A DNA stretch of 64,000 bases, taken from assembly GCA_965601925.1 (NCBI GenBank), contig OZ271854.1, positions 608,001-672,000 of the forward strand. The letters are read 5' to 3'. A model generated the notes under the pieces. That model searched no databases. It saw nothing but the letters and a program-made list of their open reading frames with translations, and had not been told where the DNA came from. This DNA is from Alkalispirochaeta sp. GTDB taxonomy: Bacteria > Spirochaetota > Spirochaetia > DSM-27196 > Alkalispirochaetaceae. A program made the position numbers and the translations under genes. Shown here one piece after another: positions 28,564 through 43,398 of the stretch. Each line of letters opens with the position of its first letter. Within the stretch, counting starts at the first letter, position 1.

Positions 28564-29529
28564 ATGCGGGAATATCGGTGGCCGCTGGGCGGCATTGCGA
28601 CCGGCGAGGTGATCTACGGTTGCATGGAAATCGGGGGCGGCTGGGACGATACGCCGCCGGGACGGGAAACGCGCAGCCGCGCCTTTGCCGTCCTCGACGC
28701 GGCGATCGAGGCGGGATACACGATGTTCGACCACGCCGACATCTATTGTCGGGGCAAGTCGGAGACGCTTTTCGGGGAATGGCTCTCCGCGCGGGGCGAT
28801 GTTCGCGATCGAATCACGATTCAGTCGAAATGCGGCATCCTACTCGCCGACGGAGACGCACAACCCTCACCGCGTCCGACGATGTACGACTTTTCATACG
28901 ACCATATTACACGATCCGTCGACGGCATCCTTTCGCGACTCGGGGTGGAGAGAATCGATGTTCTTCTCCTCCACCGACCCGATCCACTCGTCGAGCCGGA
29001 GGAGGTCGCCCGCGCCTTCGACGATCTTCACGGCGCCGGCAAAGTTCGTTCATTCGGCGTGAGCAACCACTCGGCGATGCAAATCGATCTCCTACGTTCG
29101 GCGACCGATTATCCGATTGTCGCCAACCAGATGGAGATCAGCCTCGCCCATCCCGATCTCCTCCTTGCCGGAACGGCGGTCAACCAGCGTGAACCGACGT
29201 GGTCGATGCGGGCCGCCGACACGGTTGAGTACTGCCGGTTGGAGGGAATTACCCTTCAGGCGTGGTCGCCGTTAGGTCGCGGCATCTACTCAGGGCGCGA
29301 GGAAAATGCGACCGCACGAGTGGTGGAACGCCTCGCCGCCGAGTACGACGTGAGCCGAGAGGCGATCGTGTTGGCGTGGATCATGCACCACCCGGCGCCG
29401 ATCTTACCGGTCGTGGGATCTACGAACACCGACCGCATCGCTGCCGCCGCGGAGGCGTCGGGAGTACGACTGAGTCGCGAACACTGGTATCTTCTCGCCG
29501 AGTCGGCGCGCGGCATGGGGATGCCCTGA
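28564..29529 (+). CDS. Aldo/keto reductase (YdhF-like)
   Basis: FDHADIY, QSKCGI, LLLHRPD, GVSNH, QAWSPL. Confidence 0.92.
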   Translation: MREYRWPLGGIATGEVIYGCMEIGGGWDDTPPGRETRSRAFAVLDAAIEAGYTMFDHADIYCRGKSETLFGEWLSARGDVRDRITIQSKCGILLADGDAQPSPRPTMYDFSYDHITRSVDGILSRLGVERIDVLLLHRPDPLVEPEEVARAFDDLHGAGKVRSFGVSNHSAMQIDLLRSATDYPIVANQMEISLAHPDLLLAGTAVNQREPTWSMRAADTVEYCRLEGITLQAWSPLGRGIYSGREENATARVVERLAAEYDVSREAIVLAWIMHHPAPILPVVGSTNTDRIAAAAEASGVRLSREHWYLLAESARGMGMP

Positions 29530-30554
29530 TGCGCCGCATCTGGATACCCCGCGCCGGGAGGGCGCACGTGCTTGAAGTGCGAGAAGAGCCCGACGTTACA
29601 CCGGCTGAGGGCGAGGTTTGTATCGACGTGGTCGCGGCGGGCGTCAACTTCGCGGATGTGCTGGCACGCACCGGAATGTATCCCGACGCGCCGCCCTTTC
29701 CGTGCGTCGTCGGTTATGAGGTATCGGGGCGCATCCGGGCGGTCGGTAACGCCGTCTCGGAGGCGAGGCCGGAACTGATACCGGGAGCGGCGGTCGTAGC
29801 GCTCACACGGTTCGGCGGTTACAGTGACACGGTATCGGTCCCCCACGGTCAGGTATTCGTTCTGCCGCCGGAGATACCGGTGGAGGATGCGGCTGCCTTA
29901 CCCGTCAACTATCTCACGGCGTGGCTCGCCCTCAGGCGTCTGGCGGTCGTCCACCCCGGCGACCTCGTGTTGATCCACAACGCCGGCGGAGGCGTGGGAA
30001 TCGCCGCCACCCAGCTCGCAAAGGCGGCCGGAGCGCGCACCGTCGGAACATCGTCGGCGTGGAAGCACGACGCGCTTACGGCCGGCGGCCTCGACCACGC
30101 GATCGACTATCGCACGCGCGATGTGGCCGAGGAGGTTCGCCGCATCGAGGCGCGCGGCGCCGACGTCATACTCAATCCGATGGGAGGTTCCACGGTGCGT
30201 CGCGATCTCCGTCTCCTCGCTCCCCTCGGTCATCTCGTGCTGTTCGGTCTATCGGAACCGGTCGCGGAGGGTCGTCGCTCGTGGTGGCGCCTCCTCCGCT
30301 CCCTCGTCGCGATGCCGCGCCCCGGGGTACTGGGCCTCATCAGCCGCAACCAGAGCGTCGCGGGACTCAACATCGGCCATCTCTGGTCGGATTTTCACCG
30401 ATTCCGGGCCGCCGGCGAGTATCTGCTCGAGGACTGGAAGAACGGTGTGATAGCGCCCAAGATTCACGCGCGCGTTCCCTTCGTCGACGCGGCACAGGCG
30501 CACGAGATACTCCAGGAGCGTAAGAATCTCGGCAAGGTACTCCTCGTCCCGTAA
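29529..30554 (+). CDS. Medium-chain dehydrogenase / quinone oxidoreductase (VAT-1-like)
   Basis: GVNFAD, GYEVSG, PVNYLTAW, AGGGVG, GKVLL. Confidence 0.9.
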   Translation: MRRIWIPRAGRAHVLEVREEPDVTPAEGEVCIDVVAAGVNFADVLARTGMYPDAPPFPCVVGYEVSGRIRAVGNAVSEARPELIPGAAVVALTRFGGYSDTVSVPHGQVFVLPPEIPVEDAAALPVNYLTAWLALRRLAVVHPGDLVLIHNAGGGVGIAATQLAKAAGARTVGTSSAWKHDALTAGGLDHAIDYRTRDVAEEVRRIEARGADVILNPMGGSTVRRDLRLLAPLGHLVLFGLSEPVAEGRRSWWRLLRSLVAMPRPGVLGLISRNQSVAGLNIGHLWSDFHRFRAAGEYLLEDWKNGVIAPKIHARVPFVDAAQAHEILQERKNLGKVLLVP

Positions 30555-30665: not shown

Positions 30666-31664
30666 ATGAGTAACGACCGCCTCGGCGCATCGGCGCTTGA
30701 CGACAAGGAATACGAGCAGCTCCTGCGATCGGCTCTCGACGCGTATGTGGCGGTACTCGTCGCCGACCTTGACGATCGAATACTGTACGCCAACAAGCAA
30801 TGGTGCGATATCTGGGGCTACACCGACGGGCCACCGGAGGTGGTCGATACGAAACTTCTCACTCTCGCACGCAACATGATTCACGATGTCGACGCATTCG
30901 AAGCGCGCATCGTCTACTTACGCGCCAACCCTCACGAAACCTCCTTCGAACTCGTACAATTCACCGACGGTAGAGTCCTGGAGCGACTCACCGCTCCATT
31001 GTACGTCGCGGGCGAGCTGCGCGCGCAGATATGGGCGTTCAGAGATCTGTCGGACCGCCTCAGCCCGTCGCTCATCTCACCCTCGAGCGGTCTCATATCC
31101 GGAAGCGGCGAGTCGGCGCGGCGCCTCGCCGCGACATCGGCGCGCGTTCGCGATTTCGTCAGTCGACACGTCGACGACATGTGCACTGTCTGCGTGGGCC
31201 TCGTATCGCTCCTTCACGACGCCATCGAGTCCGGAAGCGAGGATGACGAGTCACCAGTTCGCGCGCTCTCGCGTTACACCGCCATGTACACCGCAACCGG
31301 CCTCGGCTGCGATCCGAACGCCATCGACATCTCCGACACCCGTGAGAACGGCGCGGCGATGGTACCGCGGAGTCTAGACGCGCTTCTCGGTGCCGAACTG
31401 CTCCTCGCCGGCCTCGTTGCACTCGCGGCCGGGGAGGAGGTTGTGGCCGAGGTGCGGATTCACGCTTCGACGCTGGACATCGCCGGGCGACATCTCGGCT
31501 CGTATCCGCCCGTCGTAACCTACCCTCACATCGATATCGCCCGCGACTGCGCCGATCTTATACGGCGAGAGACGGACCACACGAGGACGGCGCAACCGGG
31601 ACTGGTGAGATTCGCGAGGCTCCGGTTTGAGGAGGAGACGACTCGCGGGGAGGATACGCGATGA
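30666..31664 (+). CDS. PAS domain protein with unassigned (possibly degenerate kinase-like) C-terminus
   Basis: ILYANKQWCDIWG...FTDGRVLER...IWAFRDL PAS signature. Confidence 0.75.
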   Translation: MSNDRLGASALDDKEYEQLLRSALDAYVAVLVADLDDRILYANKQWCDIWGYTDGPPEVVDTKLLTLARNMIHDVDAFEARIVYLRANPHETSFELVQFTDGRVLERLTAPLYVAGELRAQIWAFRDLSDRLSPSLISPSSGLISGSGESARRLAATSARVRDFVSRHVDDMCTVCVGLVSLLHDAIESGSEDDESPVRALSRYTAMYTATGLGCDPNAIDISDTRENGAAMVPRSLDALLGAELLLAGLVALAAGEEVVAEVRIHASTLDIAGRHLGSYPPVVTYPHIDIARDCADLIRRETDHTRTAQPGLVRFARLRFEEETTRGEDTR

Positions 31665-32701
31665 ACCGGTCCGTGGCGTTTTACGACGCCATCCTCGACA
31701 CGTTGGCCGCCGTGCTCATCGTAGATGAGGAGGGTAGAGTACTATACGCAAACGAGCCGTGGTACGACATGGTCGATGTCGAACGGAGTATCGTAGATTT
31801 TCGCATCACGCCGGAGCTTCGCGAGCGGTGGTCGGCCATGCTCCGCAATCCCGAGGGCTTCAGCGCTCGACTGGAGGAGTTACGGGAACACCCCGAGTTG
31901 GAAGCGCACGACCTGATCGAGTTCAAGGACGGGAGACTCTTCGAACGGTACAGCAAGCCGATTCCGAACGAGAACTATAAGAACGTACGCTTATGGGTCT
32001 TTCGCAACTTCTCAGACCGCCTCGCGATGCACGACGCTCTACCGTCGATCGCCCTCTCACAACGGGGGGCAAATAGGATCGCCGAGCGGATCGCGACACT
32101 CGAGTACGAGCTCGCTCGAGCTCGCGTACTGCGCGCCCACGCCGACGTAGCGACCGAGAAGAAGGCGGAATGGCTCGATACACTGCTCGGGACGGCGCAC
32201 AAGGTGCTGGGCGAGCTCCTTTCCGATCAGCCGCGGGGCGCCGGCTCGCTCGAGGCGGGGGAGATCCGCGATCGAGGGGCAGCCGCATTCGACGTCGCGA
32301 TTCACGGATACGCCGTGTTTCGGTTCGACGAACTCTGCTCGATTGCCGACGTCGCGTCGGTCCCGGTGTTCAGCCCGACGGCATTTCTGGAGGGATTCGT
32401 TCCTGCGCTCTGCGCACACACCCTCATGCTGAACAAACGACATTCCGGGATGCGCAACACCGAACCCGCCATACGTCTGTTTGTCGCCGGCGGCTCGGTC
32501 GTGATCGAGTCGGTCGGAGATATGCCCCCTCCCGGTGCGAGTGCCGCCGTGACCGGCGGCGCGACGGGAGATCCGCTCGATCCGCTGCGTCCCAAGCTTC
32601 GCGTGATTACCGAGCTCGAGGACATCTTTGCGACGTTAAGCGGCTTTCACCGCGCCGAGACCCGTACGGCCCGGGAATGGATACGGTACGAACATGATTG
32701 A
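31661..32701 (+). CDS. PAS domain protein, paralogue of the upstream gene
   Basis: VLYANEPWYDM...FKDGRLFERYS...LWVFRNF; ATGA overlap with the upstream gene. Confidence 0.75.
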   Translation: MNRSVAFYDAILDTLAAVLIVDEEGRVLYANEPWYDMVDVERSIVDFRITPELRERWSAMLRNPEGFSARLEELREHPELEAHDLIEFKDGRLFERYSKPIPNENYKNVRLWVFRNFSDRLAMHDALPSIALSQRGANRIAERIATLEYELARARVLRAHADVATEKKAEWLDTLLGTAHKVLGELLSDQPRGAGSLEAGEIRDRGAAAFDVAIHGYAVFRFDELCSIADVASVPVFSPTAFLEGFVPALCAHTLMLNKRHSGMRNTEPAIRLFVAGGSVVIESVGDMPPPGASAAVTGGATGDPLDPLRPKLRVITELEDIFATLSGFHRAETRTAREWIRYEHD

Positions 32702-34691
32702 CTACACCGACGGACTGCACACGACCACCATCGTGACGCTCGCCGCTCGCGAACTCCTCGGCAACCCGCGGTACGTGCGCATCGAGAGCCTGAGCGAGCG
32801 GTGGCTCGTCGAAAGCCACCCCGACGCACCGCCGGACCGCGTCGACACGGAGACGGTGCGCGGGGAGCGCCACGATGAGACGTGGCGCATCGATTGGTCT
32901 CACGGCGAGACGGGTGAACCGGGCGTACCGGTCGATCGCGAGCGCATTCGGGCCGTCTTTGCCCGGCTCATCGACACGCACGCCGACCCCGCATTTTCGC
33001 TTCGGGGGCTGCAGACGCACCGTGAGGCATCGCCGAGCTATTCCGGCGCACCGTTAAGCCCCGGCGTAGTGGCGGCGGTACCGACGAAAATCGACACGTG
33101 GGAACTCGATTCGATCCTCGCGTCGACCGAGTTACGACGCGAGATCGCCGAAGGCGAAATCGTCGCCGCCTCGCGCCTCGTGACGACCGAGATTCGCTCC
33201 CTCGCGGAGCGCTCGGCGAGCCGGGATGCCGCCGCGGTACTGGAGGCCCAAGCACTCCTGCTCGAGTCGTCGTCGTTCATCGGGGCGATCACGAGCAGCG
33301 TACGCGACGGCCAGTCTTTCAGCCTTTCGGTATCCTCGACCGTTAATCGCCTACGCGATCGGATTCGCGGCGTCGGCTCCTCGCTGGTGCTCGAAAAGAT
33401 TCAAGATATCGAGGATCTGGCGATGCGGCTCTCCCTCGCCGTACTGGGCACGAGCAGCACCTCCGTGAACGTGGCGGGGCGCATCGTATGCATCGACCAA
33501 CCGCAACCGTCGACGCTCTTTCAACTGACGAATGCGGGCGCCGCCGGTATTGCACTGTTCGACGCGACGGCAACGTCCCACCTCGCGATCATCGCTTCGT
33601 CTCTGCCGGTTCCGACCGTCCTGTTCGAAGGAAACGCGCCGACGCAGTTTGCCGCGGGGCCGTATACACTCGACGCGGAGTCGGGTGCGTTTTACGCCGG
33701 AACCGAGGCGTCCGGTACGAAGATATCCCTTCCACCGGCACTCGAGCTGGCCGGTGGACTGTCGCTGACCGATACCTCCATCATCGATCGCCCGGCGCTG
33801 CTTGCGAACGTGAGCGCGGAGCAGGATGCGGCCATCGCCGCCGCGGACGCGGAAGGCATCGGCCTGTACCGTACGGAACTTGCCTGGGAGTTGGTCGGAC
33901 GCATCCCCGCGGAGGACGAACAGTGTGCAACGTATCGCACCGTGTTCGCTTCGTTCGCAGGTAAGCCCATCACCGTCAGAACGGCCGATATCGGTGGCGA
34001 CAAGCCGATAGACGAAACTCTCTCCGACGCGGAGGATAACCCGTTTCTCGGCGTGCGGGGCATTCGATTCTCCCTGGCCCAGCGCGAGCTGTTTCGACGC
34101 CAGTTGCGGGCGATATTGCGCGCCGGAGTCGGATACGATGTGCGCGTTATGCTCCCGATGGTGACCACACCGTCGGAAATCGAGACGGCGCGCGAGGAGC
34201 TCGCTATTGCGGCGCTCGAGTTGGAACACGACGGCGTCGAACATCTGCGGACTCCCAAGCTCGGCATTATGATCGAAACGCCGGCGGCGGCGATCTATGC
34301 CGAGGAGTTGGCCCGTCGCGTCGATTTCTTTTCGATCGGTACCAACGACTTGGTCATGTATCTCATGGCGGTTGATCGCACGAATCAGGCCGTATCGTCA
34401 CTCTATCGCACCTTTCATCCGGTGATCCTCAGAACTCTCGATACGGTGGCAAAGGCGGCACATAGCGCATCCATACACGTATCGGTCTGCGGTCAGGCGG
34501 CCGCCGATCCGCACTTTTTGCCCTTCCTCGTCGGTATCGGCATCGATGCGGTAAGCGTCGCCCCCGGGAGTCTTCGTCGCACTCGCGACATCATCGCCCG
34601 TCTCTCACCCGCTCTATGCCGCGGATTCGCGGACCGCCTGCTGTCCGGCGAATCGTTGGCGGCCGTGTTGTCCGAGGTCGGGGACCGATAG
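32694..34691 (+). CDS. PEP-protein phosphotransferase (PTS Enzyme I-like) with extra N-terminal domain
   Basis: TSHLAI phospho-His, GIGLYRTE, DIGGDK, NPFLGVRGIR, SIGTNDL, CG; about 110 aa N-terminal extension. Confidence 0.9.
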   Translation: MIDYTDGLHTTTIVTLAARELLGNPRYVRIESLSERWLVESHPDAPPDRVDTETVRGERHDETWRIDWSHGETGEPGVPVDRERIRAVFARLIDTHADPAFSLRGLQTHREASPSYSGAPLSPGVVAAVPTKIDTWELDSILASTELRREIAEGEIVAASRLVTTEIRSLAERSASRDAAAVLEAQALLLESSSFIGAITSSVRDGQSFSLSVSSTVNRLRDRIRGVGSSLVLEKIQDIEDLAMRLSLAVLGTSSTSVNVAGRIVCIDQPQPSTLFQLTNAGAAGIALFDATATSHLAIIASSLPVPTVLFEGNAPTQFAAGPYTLDAESGAFYAGTEASGTKISLPPALELAGGLSLTDTSIIDRPALLANVSAEQDAAIAAADAEGIGLYRTELAWELVGRIPAEDEQCATYRTVFASFAGKPITVRTADIGGDKPIDETLSDAEDNPFLGVRGIRFSLAQRELFRRQLRAILRAGVGYDVRVMLPMVTTPSEIETAREELAIAALELEHDGVEHLRTPKLGIMIETPAAAIYAEELARRVDFFSIGTNDLVMYLMAVDRTNQAVSSLYRTFHPVILRTLDTVAKAAHSASIHVSVCGQAAADPHFLPFLVGIGIDAVSVAPGSLRRTRDIIARLSPALCRGFADRLLSGESLAAVLSEVGDR

Positions 34692-38527: not shown

Positions 38528-40162
38528 TCAGCGCAGCAACCGCCCGCCGAACCGCTTAATAACGTACTCGGTCACCTCGCTCATTGTATCGATCGAGCGC
38601 GACGAGTTTCCCGATCTGACGAAAAACCGTTCGACCGGCGGCGCACCCTTTGCGGCAATTCGGGTGTACAGCGGGACTCGTCCCTTGCGGACGTCCAACC
38701 GACAGATCTCCCGACCGTCGATGACGGGAAAGCGAATTCGGATACGATCGGCGGCAAAGGCGGTACCGTAGTGCGACGAGATGAGGTTACGCAGATGGAG
38801 CTCGAAATAGTCTTTTCCCTCGTCCTTGAGACAGCCGTAATCGGCGTCTAACCCCGCGATCTGGCCGTCGTCGGACACACCGATGAGAATCGTTCCGCCG
38901 CGATGGTTGTTAAAGGCCGCGATCGATTTAATGATCACCAACTCGAGATCCTTGTTGGGCCTCTTTTCGCGATGATCCCAGCGGAGTGACGCTTTTAACT
39001 CCAGCGACGCGGACTCGCCGCCGGCGATGCGCGCCTTGAGCTTCTCCTCGTCGGTAGCTTGGTCGATACGCGTCATGAAGTCCCGCACCAACAGAATCGA
39101 CAGGAGCGCGACGGCGCCGAATACGAGGGCGCCGACGAGTTGAAAGGGGAAATAGAGTCGTGCGATCCATAAGGCGTCTTCGGGAATGACCGTACCGACG
39201 AGAATGTCGGCGCGTCCTACGTTGAGGGTTCGCGAGTCCGTGCGCCAGGTGCGCCCCCCGTACTGGAACAGCACGTCACGAGAGAGTGCGGATACGCCGT
39301 CGGTCCGTTCGCCCAACGCCTCGGCGAGTAGGTCCGCCTCATCGCCGAAACGGATCGGCGGGCGCGCGAAGCCGGACTCGTCGAACGGTTCTGCGGTACC
39401 GGCGACCTCATCAATCGAAAAGATAAGATACTCGCCCTGGGGCAAAAGGAGAAAGACCGCCGCGTCGGAGACGCCCTCAAGCGGCTCCAGCCAGTGAGCC
39501 ATCGTGGCAAGGGGCAGGTCAAGCCACAGGTGGATCGTCGAGTCGGTCGATCGCGCACCGATCTCGGCCTCGATCGTCACTCCCGTGACGTCTTTGTCGA
39601 GGAGCGTGTACGGACTGCTGATACGAAATCGGACGCGCGATCGGATCTCCTCCACGGTAGCGATCGGCGAGTCCCACAACCGTAGGTACTCGATATCGGC
39701 GCGCCTGCGACGAGCGATCAAGGAGTCTCCGTGCTCCACGGTCGTCTCGTACCATTCATAGGTCTCGAGCGTATCGTCGAGTCGGAAGACCAACTCGCGT
39801 TCGGCATCGTCGGCTATTGAGATCGCCGAGACCGAGCCCATCGACGCAAGACTATGGAAGAGCGTGTCGGCGTAGGCGGCGGGATCACCCAACGAATCGA
39901 TGGCGCCGATCTCGACCCACAACGACGCCGAGGAGATAAATTGAAACAAGGGAGAGAAATACCCGTCGACGACCCTGAGAAAGCGCGTGGAAAGAGTGTC
40001 GACGATCGCTTCGTTGAGTCGTTCGCGAATCATCGTACTGCCGACGGCCAGAAATACGAGCGCCGCGAGCGCGGCGGACAGTAAGAGAATGGTCAAACGA
40101 CGAACGAACTGTCGTACTTGATCCGAACGATCGGGTTTCCATTCGATCCGGTATAAACTGAT
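38528..40162 (-). CDS. Two-TM periplasmic sensor (Cache-like) fused to a cytoplasmic Schlafen/AlbA_2 domain
   Basis: TM, about 300 aa loop, TM, then GESASLELKASLRWD...IAAFNNHRGGTILIGVSDDG...FFVRSGNSS. Start uncertain (ATC after GGGAGG). Confidence 0.8.
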   Translation of the reverse strand: MSLYRIEWKPDRSDQVRQFVRRLTILLLSAALAALVFLAVGSTMIRERLNEAIVDTLSTRFLRVVDGYFSPLFQFISSASLWVEIGAIDSLGDPAAYADTLFHSLASMGSVSAISIADDAERELVFRLDDTLETYEWYETTVEHGDSLIARRRRADIEYLRLWDSPIATVEEIRSRVRFRISSPYTLLDKDVTGVTIEAEIGARSTDSTIHLWLDLPLATMAHWLEPLEGVSDAAVFLLLPQGEYLIFSIDEVAGTAEPFDESGFARPPIRFGDEADLLAEALGERTDGVSALSRDVLFQYGGRTWRTDSRTLNVGRADILVGTVIPEDALWIARLYFPFQLVGALVFGAVALLSILLVRDFMTRIDQATDEEKLKARIAGGESASLELKASLRWDHREKRPNKDLELVIIKSIAAFNNHRGGTILIGVSDDGQIAGLDADYGCLKDEGKDYFELHLRNLISSHYGTAFAADRIRIRFPVIDGREICRLDVRKGRVPLYTRIAAKGAPPVERFFVRSGNSSRSIDTMSEVTEYVIKRFGGRLLR

Positions 40163-40333
40163 CTGCGCCTCCCGCGTTATTGCGGTACCATACCCTCGCC
40201 GTTCGGACCGTATCAACCCGCCGAGCCCGAGGAAAAAGAGCAATAAACGGAATGAGCCGTGCGGTGAGAAATGCGTACACTCGGAGTACGTTGCGGCGCG
40301 CAACGATACGTATCAAAAAACGGGAGGATACGG

Positions 40334-41273: not shown

Positions 41274-42122
41274 ATGATTCGCGTATGCACCGCATGGGCG
41301 GTACTGCTCGGCACGATGTCACTCCCGCATACGGCGGAGACGCAGCAACCGCCGCTCATCGTCGGCACGTTTAACGTTCACTACATCAGCGACGATCAGG
41401 GGAACTTTGCGTGGGAGGTGCGAAGGGACGCGGTGGCGCGCTCGATTCGTGACGGCGCACCCGATATCATCGCATTTCAAGAGATGGAAACGTTCGAGGG
41501 CGGGCACTACAACGAGCGGAATGTGCAACTCGAGTTCTTACGCGATCGATTTCCCGAGTACGCCTTCGGTGCGGTGGGCGAGCCCGCCGAGTATCCCTCG
41601 ACTCAGCCGGTGATGTACCGCCGCGATCGTTTCGACCTTCTCGATCAGGGGTTCTTTTTCTTCTCCGCTACGCCCGATATGATCTACTCGAGATCGTGGG
41701 ACGGGCGTTTTCCGGCGTTCGCGTCGTGGGCGCGCCTGTACGATCGCCTACGGAGCGAGCGGTTCTATATCTATAACATTCACTTCGACCACGGCAGCAG
41801 GCGCAACCGTCTTATGGCCGCGGCGTTGACCGTAGAGCGCATCGCCGACCGTACCCATCCCGAGGATGCAGTACTCGTGGTAGGAGATTTCAACGCTCCC
41901 CGTTCCTTCCGCCCGGTACGTATCGTCGCCGAGGCGGGGTTTCGCGTCGCGCGCTCCCGCGGAAGTACGGTGCATTTTAACCGTGGCGTCAACGTCGTAC
42001 CGGCGATCGATCACATCCTCTACTCCGAACCGTTCCGCTTCCGAAGCGCGACGATAATACGGGAACGCTACGACGGCGTGTGGCCGTCCGATCACTATCC
42101 GGTGTTCGTCACCTTCGAATGA
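41274..42122 (+). CDS. Endonuclease/exonuclease/phosphatase family protein, exported
   Basis: TFNV, FQE, NIHFDH, GDFN, IDHI, SDHYPV; signal peptide. Confidence 0.9.
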   Translation: MIRVCTAWAVLLGTMSLPHTAETQQPPLIVGTFNVHYISDDQGNFAWEVRRDAVARSIRDGAPDIIAFQEMETFEGGHYNERNVQLEFLRDRFPEYAFGAVGEPAEYPSTQPVMYRRDRFDLLDQGFFFFSATPDMIYSRSWDGRFPAFASWARLYDRLRSERFYIYNIHFDHGSRRNRLMAAALTVERIADRTHPEDAVLVVGDFNAPRSFRPVRIVAEAGFRVARSRGSTVHFNRGVNVVPAIDHILYSEPFRFRSATIIRERYDGVWPSDHYPVFVTFE

Positions 42123-43398
42123 GTGACGCTATCGATCGCGCCGAGCCGCCTGAGCGTGCGGCCGCCGTATGTGCAGTCGGTGAGGGAATGTGAATCGCGA
42201 TACCGGCGCCGTGGCACCCGGTGGGCGCCGAAACGCTCCCGTGAAGTTGGTCGACCAACGCATCGACCAGGTATCCGCCGTGGGCCGAGACGCGTTGTGC
42301 GAATGCATACGCCCGGCTCTCGTCCGCTTTCCCGCAAAACGTGAGGGTCGCGTCGGACTTCGAAGCGGAAAATGTAAGCGAGCAACGGCCGGGTCTCTCG
42401 GCCTCACGGTGTACTACGCGCCATGTGCGTAGAACCTCGTCCACGAGGAGTGCAATCGGGCCGGCGGCGTCGAAACCGATCCGCACGCCGCGGGCCTCCA
42501 CCGAACACCATTGATGGGCGCCGAACCGACCGTCCGTTGCGAGGGAGTGATCCCTGATCGTCGTAAGGAGTTCCTCGCCGTCCACCGTGGCGGCGTCGTC
42601 ATTTCCGTGGAGTAACTCGTGGGCGACGGCCAGGCAGTACACGCGCGACCGAAAGGTCTCGAGAGTCGTTCGTGCGTCGACCTCGCCGTCGGACTCGAGG
42701 TTGAGGAGGCTTGCCAGGAGTTGCAGGTTGTTCTTGACGCGATGGTGCAGCTCGCCCAGCAATCCCGCCTGTAGCTCGAGATGAAACCGCAGTAGTTCGT
42801 TTGCATCGCGGACCTCGGCGTGGCGACGAAGAAGCGCAAGATGATAGGCGCGCTGCCGTGCGAACGACGCCTCGAGCCGCGTTACGAGAAAATCCGTAGC
42901 GAGCGCCAACACAGAGGATACAGCGAGAAAGTTCGTCATATGAACGGTCCACTCGACGACCGAGATAGACCATGCGAGGAGATCGCGAGAGAGCGCCCAC
43001 CCCAACACCACCGTGGCGGCGACAACTGCCGCGATGGTAACGAGAGCACCGGTACGACCCAAGAGGAGCGCACTGAAGGCGACGGCGGCGAAGAGCCACA
43101 CAATCCCCCCGCCATGCGGCCCTAACTGCACCAAAAGAAGCGTCGCGAGGACGAACGCGATTAGGATAACGCCGGCGACACGGATCATGTACGGTATGCG
43201 CTTGCCGATCCACAACACGAAAATCAACACATAGGCGGCCAGATCGATCCAAAATACGAGCCATAGGGACGCGGAGAACGAGAGCGCCAGGCTGGGGATC
43301 AAGGCGATAAGCGCCGCAACGAGGGCGATTCGCAAGCAGTAGGTGAGCAGCCGGTTACGCCAGGCATTAACGAGGGTTAGATCCGTCGTGAACGACAT
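42109..43398 (-). CDS. Membrane HisKA_2-type histidine kinase with degenerate ATPase domain
   Basis: About 6 TM; ELHHRVKNNLQ; N and G1 boxes not conserved. Confidence 0.8.
   Translation of the reverse strand: MSFTTDLTLVNAWRNRLLTYCLRIALVAALIALIPSLALSFSASLWLVFWIDLAAYVLIFVLWIGKRIPYMIRVAGVILIAFVLATLLLVQLGPHGGGIVWLFAAVAFSALLLGRTGALVTIAAVVAATVVLGWALSRDLLAWSISVVEWTVHMTNFLAVSSVLALATDFLVTRLEASFARQRAYHLALLRRHAEVRDANELLRFHLELQAGLLGELHHRVKNNLQLLASLLNLESDGEVDARTTLETFRSRVYCLAVAHELLHGNDDAATVDGEELLTTIRDHSLATDGRFGAHQWCSVEARGVRIGFDAAGPIALLVDEVLRTWRVVHREAERPGRCSLTFSASKSDATLTFCGKADESRAYAFAQRVSAHGGYLVDALVDQLHGSVSAPTGCHGAGIAIHIPSPTAHTAAARSGGSARSIASLIRR

Follow-up and report, generated by a model that had tools for sequence, protein, structure and literature searches.

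Two PAS proteins encoded with a divergent Enzyme I in Alkalispirochaeta: a candidate sensory branch of the regulatory phosphotransferase system

A three-gene unit beside the closest described systems

In the window analysed here, a stretch of 64,000 nucleotides from Alkalispirochaeta sp. (contig OZ271854.1, positions 608,001 to 672,000), three consecutive genes encode two PAS proteins, P1 and P2, and a protein resembling Enzyme I (EI) of the phosphoenolpyruvate (PEP)-dependent phosphotransferase system (PTS). Parts of this unit have described counterparts. ChpT, whose ATP domain is degenerate, has the fold predicted for P1, a dimerization and histidine-phosphotransfer (DHp) part followed by an ATP domain (Z 8.0-8.6, rmsd 4.0-4.8, 154-159 residues aligned). 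However, P1 has a PAS domain in front, a shorter DHp-like part and, at the canonical site, no demonstrated His, and its partner would be EI instead of a hybrid kinase and CtrA. NifL combines PAS with a kinase-like domain used for protein binding, binds nucleotides and targets a sigma-54 activator. It is the best Foldseek row of the P2 model (E 4.8e-3), but that model is too poor to be trusted, and no sigma-54 activator gene is found at the P1-P2-EI unit. DivL likewise consists of PAS, DHp and catalytic ATP-binding (CA) parts without a phosphorylatable His at the canonical site, and matches the P1 fold with Z 6.8-7.0. According to the accessible part of PMC4211667, DivL acts by binding, its ligand being a response regulator, and retains the N, G1, F and G2 boxes. 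P1 and P2, by contrast, have lost the boxes, come as a pair of paralogues and are encoded next to an EI.

On the PTS side, the nearest system is EI-Ntr (PtsP). As in EI-Ntr, the EI of this unit carries an extra N-terminal domain, is encoded apart from HPr genes and appears to have a regulatory ancestry; it differs in having no recognisable GAF domain and remodelled docking helices, and in being coupled to the genes of two likely PAS pseudokinases. GAF is given as the known input of the GAF-containing EIs (GAF-EIs) in the available text of PMC13104625. Links between the PTS and kinases, as far as the accessible portions of PMC13104625 and PMC4996493 cover them, consist of EIIA-Ntr binding to active kinases (KdpD, PhoR) or of the housekeeping EI acting on CheA. 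For the latter, the state of EI affects the CheA kinase complex (PMC4996493, in part), which is a precedent for an EI touching such a complex. In Caulobacter, the PAS protein MopJ and PtsP interact genetically (PMC4620464, available part). These cases involve a housekeeping EI or parallel, unlinked pathways, and not a dedicated EI paralogue that shares one unit with pseudokinases. By analogy, the unit would function as a PtsP whose sensor acts in trans, and P1 and P2 would resemble ChpT, DivL and NifL in plan. No such unit was found described in the literature searched, whose coverage left out most subscription papers.

The explanation that we tentatively prefer, at somewhat less than an even chance, is that P1 and P2 form a pseudokinase pair that binds EI and adjusts its PEP-driven phosphorylation, standing in for a GAF domain that is likely worn, with output through the HPr/EIIA pool. 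EI, which retains H296 and the PEP-site residues in its sequence, would be the catalyst. P1, and less surely P2, are predicted to be PAS-DHp-CA proteins unable to use ATP; the gene overlaps and the paralogy suggest that the two are produced jointly and dimerise with each other. A PAS signal might then shift the hold of the dimer on EI and so alter its autophosphorylation or the hand-over of phosphate, which would exit via an HPr of the genome, most plausibly the one beside hprK, towards EIIA-type regulators. We infer every step that goes past sequence and fold. Several features argue for this explanation: overlaps of the translational-coupling kind, of which the one between P2 and EI is predicted to be kept at 64-70% identity; a catalytic set kept despite a stem of ~2 changes per site; the grouping of EI with GAF-EIs, yet without a recognisable GAF; PAS as the best-kept part of P1; the match of the P1 model to kinase cores and ChpT; and no flanking response regulator, while an output path of HPr, hprK and EIIA_2 exists. 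A prediction of the complex between P1 140-325, P2 120-346 and EI 1-340 gave 0.65, 0.00 and 0.00 (mark 0.32) and weighs neither way.

Enzyme I: catalytic core, docking face and ancestry

EI matches each of the three EI domains of Pfam, the PEP barrel strongly (PF02896, 307 bits), and R393, R429, R455, E528, N551, D552, R562 and C599, which we take to be the counterparts of the E. coli barrel residues R296, R332, R358, E431, N454, D455, R465 and C502, are present in all 43 aligned rows. H296 aligns with the TSH motif of solved EIs and is a His in the same 43 rows, as the initial annotation had proposed for the phospho-His and the conserved barrel; the phospho-His lies in the mobile domain and is H189 in E. 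coli (PMC13598208, accessible part). The catalytic set is intact in 4/4 rows of the EI family, and EI thus looks catalytically intact. Its scores fall below the whole-protein cut-off of TIGR01417 (306.3 vs 341.7 bits) and below that of the PtsP model PRK11061 (283.4 vs 583 bits), so that, judged by sequence, it is a divergent rather than a typical member.

The divergence that the initial annotation had seen in the HPr-docking region was borne out. This helical subdomain (PF05524), which is absent from PPDK and PEP synthase, passes its cut-off in EI with 28.2 bits (cut-off 24.4), against 61-76 bits in all seven relatives scanned. Of the columns conserved in the parent clade, 8/16 are changed in the docking subdomain versus 13/102 in the barrel (Fisher p 0.0014, although columns are not independent), the lost positions including the equivalents of Asp82 and Tyr122. 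The two main docking helices are 83-85% identical within the EI family, level with the His domain and the barrel. Helices that changed relative to the parent clade, yet are so well kept within the family, would fit a PEP-driven phosphorelay, in which EI has swapped HPr for PAS-gated, ATP-blind kinase relics. Phosphate would pass from H296 to a His on P2 (H180 or another) or on P1 (H184), the two acting as ChpT-like phosphotransfer proteins in which PEP replaces the lost ATP-binding function. We consider this improbable. Of the eight HPr-contact positions (PMC3724859, available part), four are kept or conservative in EI (D178, E184, K235 and D238), which counts against an exchange of partner; at the other four (R177, S192, S194 and L231; same source) EI is changed, as the parent clade is at some of them. 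Moreover, the accessible part of a 2026 review names only PtsO/HPr as acceptor from PtsP/EI. The docking face is altered, from which it does not follow that it is useless for HPr.

The ancestry of EI was analysed in two trees, a quick one with 43 rows and a careful maximum-likelihood one with 20 of these, from which near-duplicates and two long-branch canonical EIs had been removed; the best matches had been taken as relatives, no proteobacterial PtsP was included, and long branches are in play. EI groups with spirochaete GAF-EIs in both (support 99 and 100/100, respectively), and in the careful tree it nests within the second GAF-EI group, the more divergent one (95/98), with a stem of the length given above. 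EI and the GAF-EIs also have in common a Leu in the column equivalent to Thr168 and, within the docking subdomain, the sequence EKxxD. EI therefore looks regulatory in ancestry and related to the PtsP-like group. Since it groups with the PtsP-like GAF-EIs of spirochaetes, its N-terminus would occupy the usual place of the GAF, which favours regulation of EI over acceptance of phosphate by the PAS proteins.

This N-terminal domain of ~110 residues (against about 170-190 in EI-Ntr) had been left unassigned by the initial annotation, and residues 1-115 indeed match no Pfam family at E values up to 5. It is 47% identical to its one other lineage, and its Atlas look-alike (0.81) is to EI fragments only. 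Many genomes of the order have two GAF-EI (PtsP-like) paralogues, and the GAF of the second group is weak, unrecognisable or apparently lost; at four loci of the order (L036, L037, L043 and L048), the second-group EIs have N-termini of only 9-22 residues.

The EI of the unit is an extra copy. The genome has 11 PEP-barrel matches, of which nine are EI-like and two PPDK-like by eye. Five of the nine EI-like genes belong to clusters of the sugar-PTS or dihydroxyacetone type, where they adjoin HPr or are fused to it; one stands alone, two have a GAF (4786600-4788918 and 4080291-4082813; one GAF strong, one weak), and the last is the EI described here. The possibility that this gene is the only ptsI is thus rejected. 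The genome also has seven strong HPr matches, hprK and 13 EIIA_2 matches, and one of the HPr genes adjoins hprK and a gene that by eye resembles rpoN. The statement of the initial annotation that the window holds no HPr or EII gene stands for HPr and EIIA_2, neither of which gave a match, other EII families not having been searched for. As a side observation, the PTS kit of this genome is unusually rich, with several sugar-PTS clusters that each have their own EI and HPr. One PPDK-like gene is canonical (at 4705421); the second (2325889-2328513) has, by eye, a divergent N-terminal nucleotide-binding region.

The two PAS proteins

P1 passes PAS_8 (27.2 vs cut-off 21.8) and TIGR00229. P2 lies just under the PAS_8 cut-off (21.3 vs 21.8; E 2.5e-4), and its PAS assignment rests also on identity to P1 (34% over 137 residues, E 5e-20), in agreement with the shared PAS domain first noticed in the initial annotation. 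The likeness of P1 and P2 is limited to this domain, and a profile comparison of their C-terminal halves was not significant. No other predicted protein of the genome was found to belong to their PAS subfamily, which fits a tandem duplication. In a wider library, the same PAS type occurs mostly in long proteins, 70/147 of which have a kinase motif and 21 a GGDEF-like one, according to a rough pattern.

An AlphaFold2 model of the C-terminal half of P1, built with seven sequences, reached a pLDDT of 67-92 per block over residues 151-320, the PAS being poorly modelled. Its best Foldseek match had an E value of 1.7e-6 and all listed rows were kinase-type; with VIA, the best Z was 8.8 (rmsd 4.0, 149 residues aligned) and the top 26 rows of a wide search were again kinase-type. 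The matches comprise kinase cores, ChpT and DivL. A Z near 8 is middling by itself, and it is the uniform match list that carries the kinase-fold reading of the model. The helical part ahead of the ATP-like domain measures only about 43 residues, and P1 is thus predicted to be a shortened, ChpT-like histidine-kinase core of the DHp-CA type. For P2, the Atlas look-alikes score 0.85-0.88, below the 0.9 mark, with 181-205 shared features, and nine of the ten rows shown are kinase families. As a lead, this suggests that the C-terminal domain of P2 is likely kinase-derived as well, on a weaker signal than that of P1.

In none of the 18 family members did we find, after the PAS, the patterns of the H box (class I or HRxKN), the N box or the G1 box, and neither P1 nor P2 has a HisKA or HATPase Pfam match, as expected from the missing ATP-binding boxes recorded in the initial annotation. 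A GxGL string occurs in 3/18 members, at a site before the ATP-domain core in the P1 model. The loss of these boxes across the family makes P1 and P2 likely pseudokinases, unable to use ATP.

The proposal that FVSRHVDDMCT and ATEKKAEWL are decayed H boxes was not confirmed. H168 of P1, the His of FVSRH, is an Arg in 1/11 relatives, and kinase-core profiles score the C-terminal halves no better than shuffles. Other residues are invariant: H184 (11/11), D185 and E244 in P1, and H180 (7/7), H253, H330 and H345 in P2, in small sets. P1 H184 and P2 H180 lie on predicted helices, and an Arg follows H180 in 2/7 P2 sequences, as in an H-R box. These invariant His, together with the high rank of ChpT chains in the fold searches with P1, would suit the phosphorelay described above. 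Against it, the H260 site of HK853 falls near residues 160-163 of P1, where there is no His (a rough, ungapped extrapolation from superposition ranges), the invariance comes from few independent lineages, four other His of P2 are invariant too, and no receiver protein stands beside the unit. Separately, P1 residue 170 (31173-31175), in the column that a class I H-box reading would take for the phospho-His, is Asp or Glu in 7/7 P1 rows of the first alignment; if that register is right, it could be a fixed phospho-mimic.

Conservation is uneven along both proteins. The most conserved part of P1 is its PAS (83-105 of 117 residues identical) and the least conserved its ATP-domain-like part (only 30-36% identical in more distant relatives), whereas in P2 it is the helical region that is best kept in the distant lineage. 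Well-kept PAS domains suggest that P1 and P2 receive a signal of their own, which speaks against a reverse flow of information, where P1 and P2 would read the phosphorylation state of EI as a PEP/pyruvate gauge and, unphosphorylated themselves, signal on to, for example, one of the many true kinases of the genome. A model for such a role exists in DivL, where a pseudokinase core has been put to new use in sensing a phosphoprotein, DivK~P (PMC4211667, in part). An altered but conserved docking face on EI would fit a new binding partner, and the 21 HisKA_2 matches of the genome could be targets. The unit is nevertheless without an output domain or target gene, and we regard reverse flow as very unlikely.

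Distribution, locus history and meaning

The open reading frames (ORFs) confirmed the three overlapping genes of the initial annotation (Table 1). The stretch is identical in two contigs of one study, each covering it in one piece and possibly representing the DNA's own source; two contigs without differences exclude an assembly slip. The genome is closed and measures 5.05 Mb. The unit is flanked by a dehydrogenase gene on one side and msrA on the other, and the flanking genes scanned include no response regulator, receiver or upstream partner kinase gene directly beside it. Recent foreign DNA was considered and rejected: GC (63-65%) and codon scores (0.11-0.16; quartiles of the genome 0.12-0.19) are ordinary for the genome. 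At the unit we found no sigma-70 promoter match, terminator 3' of it, Rfam match, tRNA or notable repeat. Elsewhere in the window, a membrane protein with a sensor-like periplasmic region and a C-terminal Schlafen/AlbA_2 domain is encoded at 38528-40303 (-), and an ordinary MASE11-HisKA_2 kinase, unlinked to the unit, 7 kb downstream at 42112-43398 (-).

Table 1. Coordinates of the P1-P2-EI unit and adjoining features in the window
Feature	Position	Strand	Description
Zinc-binding/quinone-type dehydrogenase gene	29529-30554	+	111 bp upstream of P1, same strand
P1 (332 aa)	30666-31664	+	ORF; PAS about 15-131, DHp-like helical pair 146-188, GHKL-like fold 190-320 (predicted)
ATGA stop/start overlap, P1 to P2	31661-31664	+	
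P2 (346 aa)	31661-32701	+	ORF; paralogous PAS about 5-121, helical region, C-terminal domain without kinase boxes
8-nt overlap, P2 to EI	32694-32701	+	
EI (665 aa)	32694-34691	+	1-112 no family match, docking 118-250, His domain with H296, PEP barrel 367-637
EI N-terminal domain, ~110 residues	32694-33030	+	Position of GAF in related EIs

Relatives are few and come from metagenomes. Searches gave six clusters for P1, two full-length ones for P2 and one for EI 1-340, and a profile search of 1.84 billion representatives returned two full-length rows among the best 150. The named relatives of P1 and P2 are labelled Spirochaetales bacterium, and in one assembled genome P1 and P2 have consecutive accessions. 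All three families are listed on contigs of 151,594 and 125,506 bp, and P2 and EI also on one of 92,662 bp. The His-Asp-stop end of P2 and the 8-nt overlap force EI to start with M-[I/T]-[D/E], and the distant EI starts with MTE; the P2/EI overlap is thus predicted to be kept in this lineage, at 64-70% protein identity. From the contig listings and this start constraint, the same three-gene order appears to exist in one distant lineage. What was found is therefore not the combination that the initial annotation had named as speaking against its proposal, a sole ptsI with orthologues lacking PAS neighbours.

Full-length P1 was not found in 98 other genomes of the order (four PAS-only matches), nor full-length P2 in 400 genomes of the class (12 PAS-only matches), nor a close EI in 98 genomes of the order and 400 of the phylum (listed matches 32-49% and 24-34%, respectively), many of these genomes being incomplete. 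DNA of relatives was found neither in JGI metagenomes (two queries) nor in genome contigs (P1 query) or plasmids (P2 query); an EI query of genome contigs, which retrieved Oceanispirochaeta EIs, gave only two ordinary GAF-EIs. Like the labels of the P1 and P2 relatives, this fits a spirochaete host.

Within the same genus, 10/11 msrA loci read carry, after msrA, a gene of ~260 aa with a weak PilZ match, followed at six of these loci by an aldo-keto reductase orthologue. In the genome of the window, the dehydrogenase gene, P1, P2 and EI stand between the reductase and msrA, and the ~260-aa gene was not found in the genome. The unit behaves as a rare, patchy accessory block, of which the dehydrogenase gene may be a part. 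The ~260-aa gene (for example L095:2085-2873) has its PilZ match at the C-terminus and, by eye, a receiver-like start.

The lone relative in genome G056 (L090:197-1309, -), at a contig end, is a 370-aa protein of the same PAS subfamily with a kinase core that looks decayed by eye; it has no H or N box pattern and one DxGxG near its end. By eye, this PAS family shows kinase decay here in a further, separate case. A split operon joining it to the EI of G056, which also lies at a contig end, was considered and dropped: the contig ends read do not overlap and no gene overlaps the stop of the pseudokinase.

Patchiness of this kind would also be expected if the three proteins were co-transcribed passengers, perhaps co-regulated but without contact, EI being a spare PtsP-like enzyme and the pseudokinases acting elsewhere or drifting. 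Consistent with this, most same-genus loci carry another gene at the site, the G056 pseudokinase is not followed by an overlapping EI gene, the ATP-domain-like part of P1 is poorly conserved in distant relatives, and only one other lineage is inferred to have all three together. Conversely, both overlaps, including the one predicted to persist in the distant lineage, point to a link between the genes; none of the genomes searched that lack this EI type showed a member of the P1/P2 family; and simple decay fits poorly with full-length open frames and the intact active site of EI. We therefore hold passengers to be unlikely, though not far-fetched.

Several results weigh against the preferred explanation, a P1-P2 pair that tunes EI in place of a GAF. 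The approximately unbiased (AU) test leaves a position of EI outside the GAF-EI clade unrejected (p 0.3). A GAF remnant went undetected in its N-terminus, where profile and pairwise scores were in the shuffle range (best z 2.4, in 1/20 pairs). Other group members have a worn or lost GAF and, in the 1.5 kb flanks that were read, no PAS partners of this kind, so that GAF loss does not need them. The eight docking positions lost out of 16 may mean that EI no longer serves HPr. The P2 model has a pLDDT of 36 and its fold search gave no match at E 0.001; the C-terminal halves scored 11.8-20.7 against 36 class I and 13 HRxKN core profiles, shuffles reaching up to 24.9. Finally, no EI was found in the closer lineage (72-89% identity), although its contigs are only 1.2-5.8 kb long and fragments of <365 aa were skipped in the search.

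If the preferred explanation is true, an EI can receive its sensory input through separate subunits made from dead kinases instead of through a GAF domain fused to it. In the bolder case of the phosphorelay, if true, a two-component-type transmitter would run on PEP instead of ATP. The weight of either is limited by rarity, to a few uncultured or little-studied lineages. The P1-P2-EI unit is real and rare; it would be a variant of the regulatory PTS, and possibly a new route by which signals enter the PTS.

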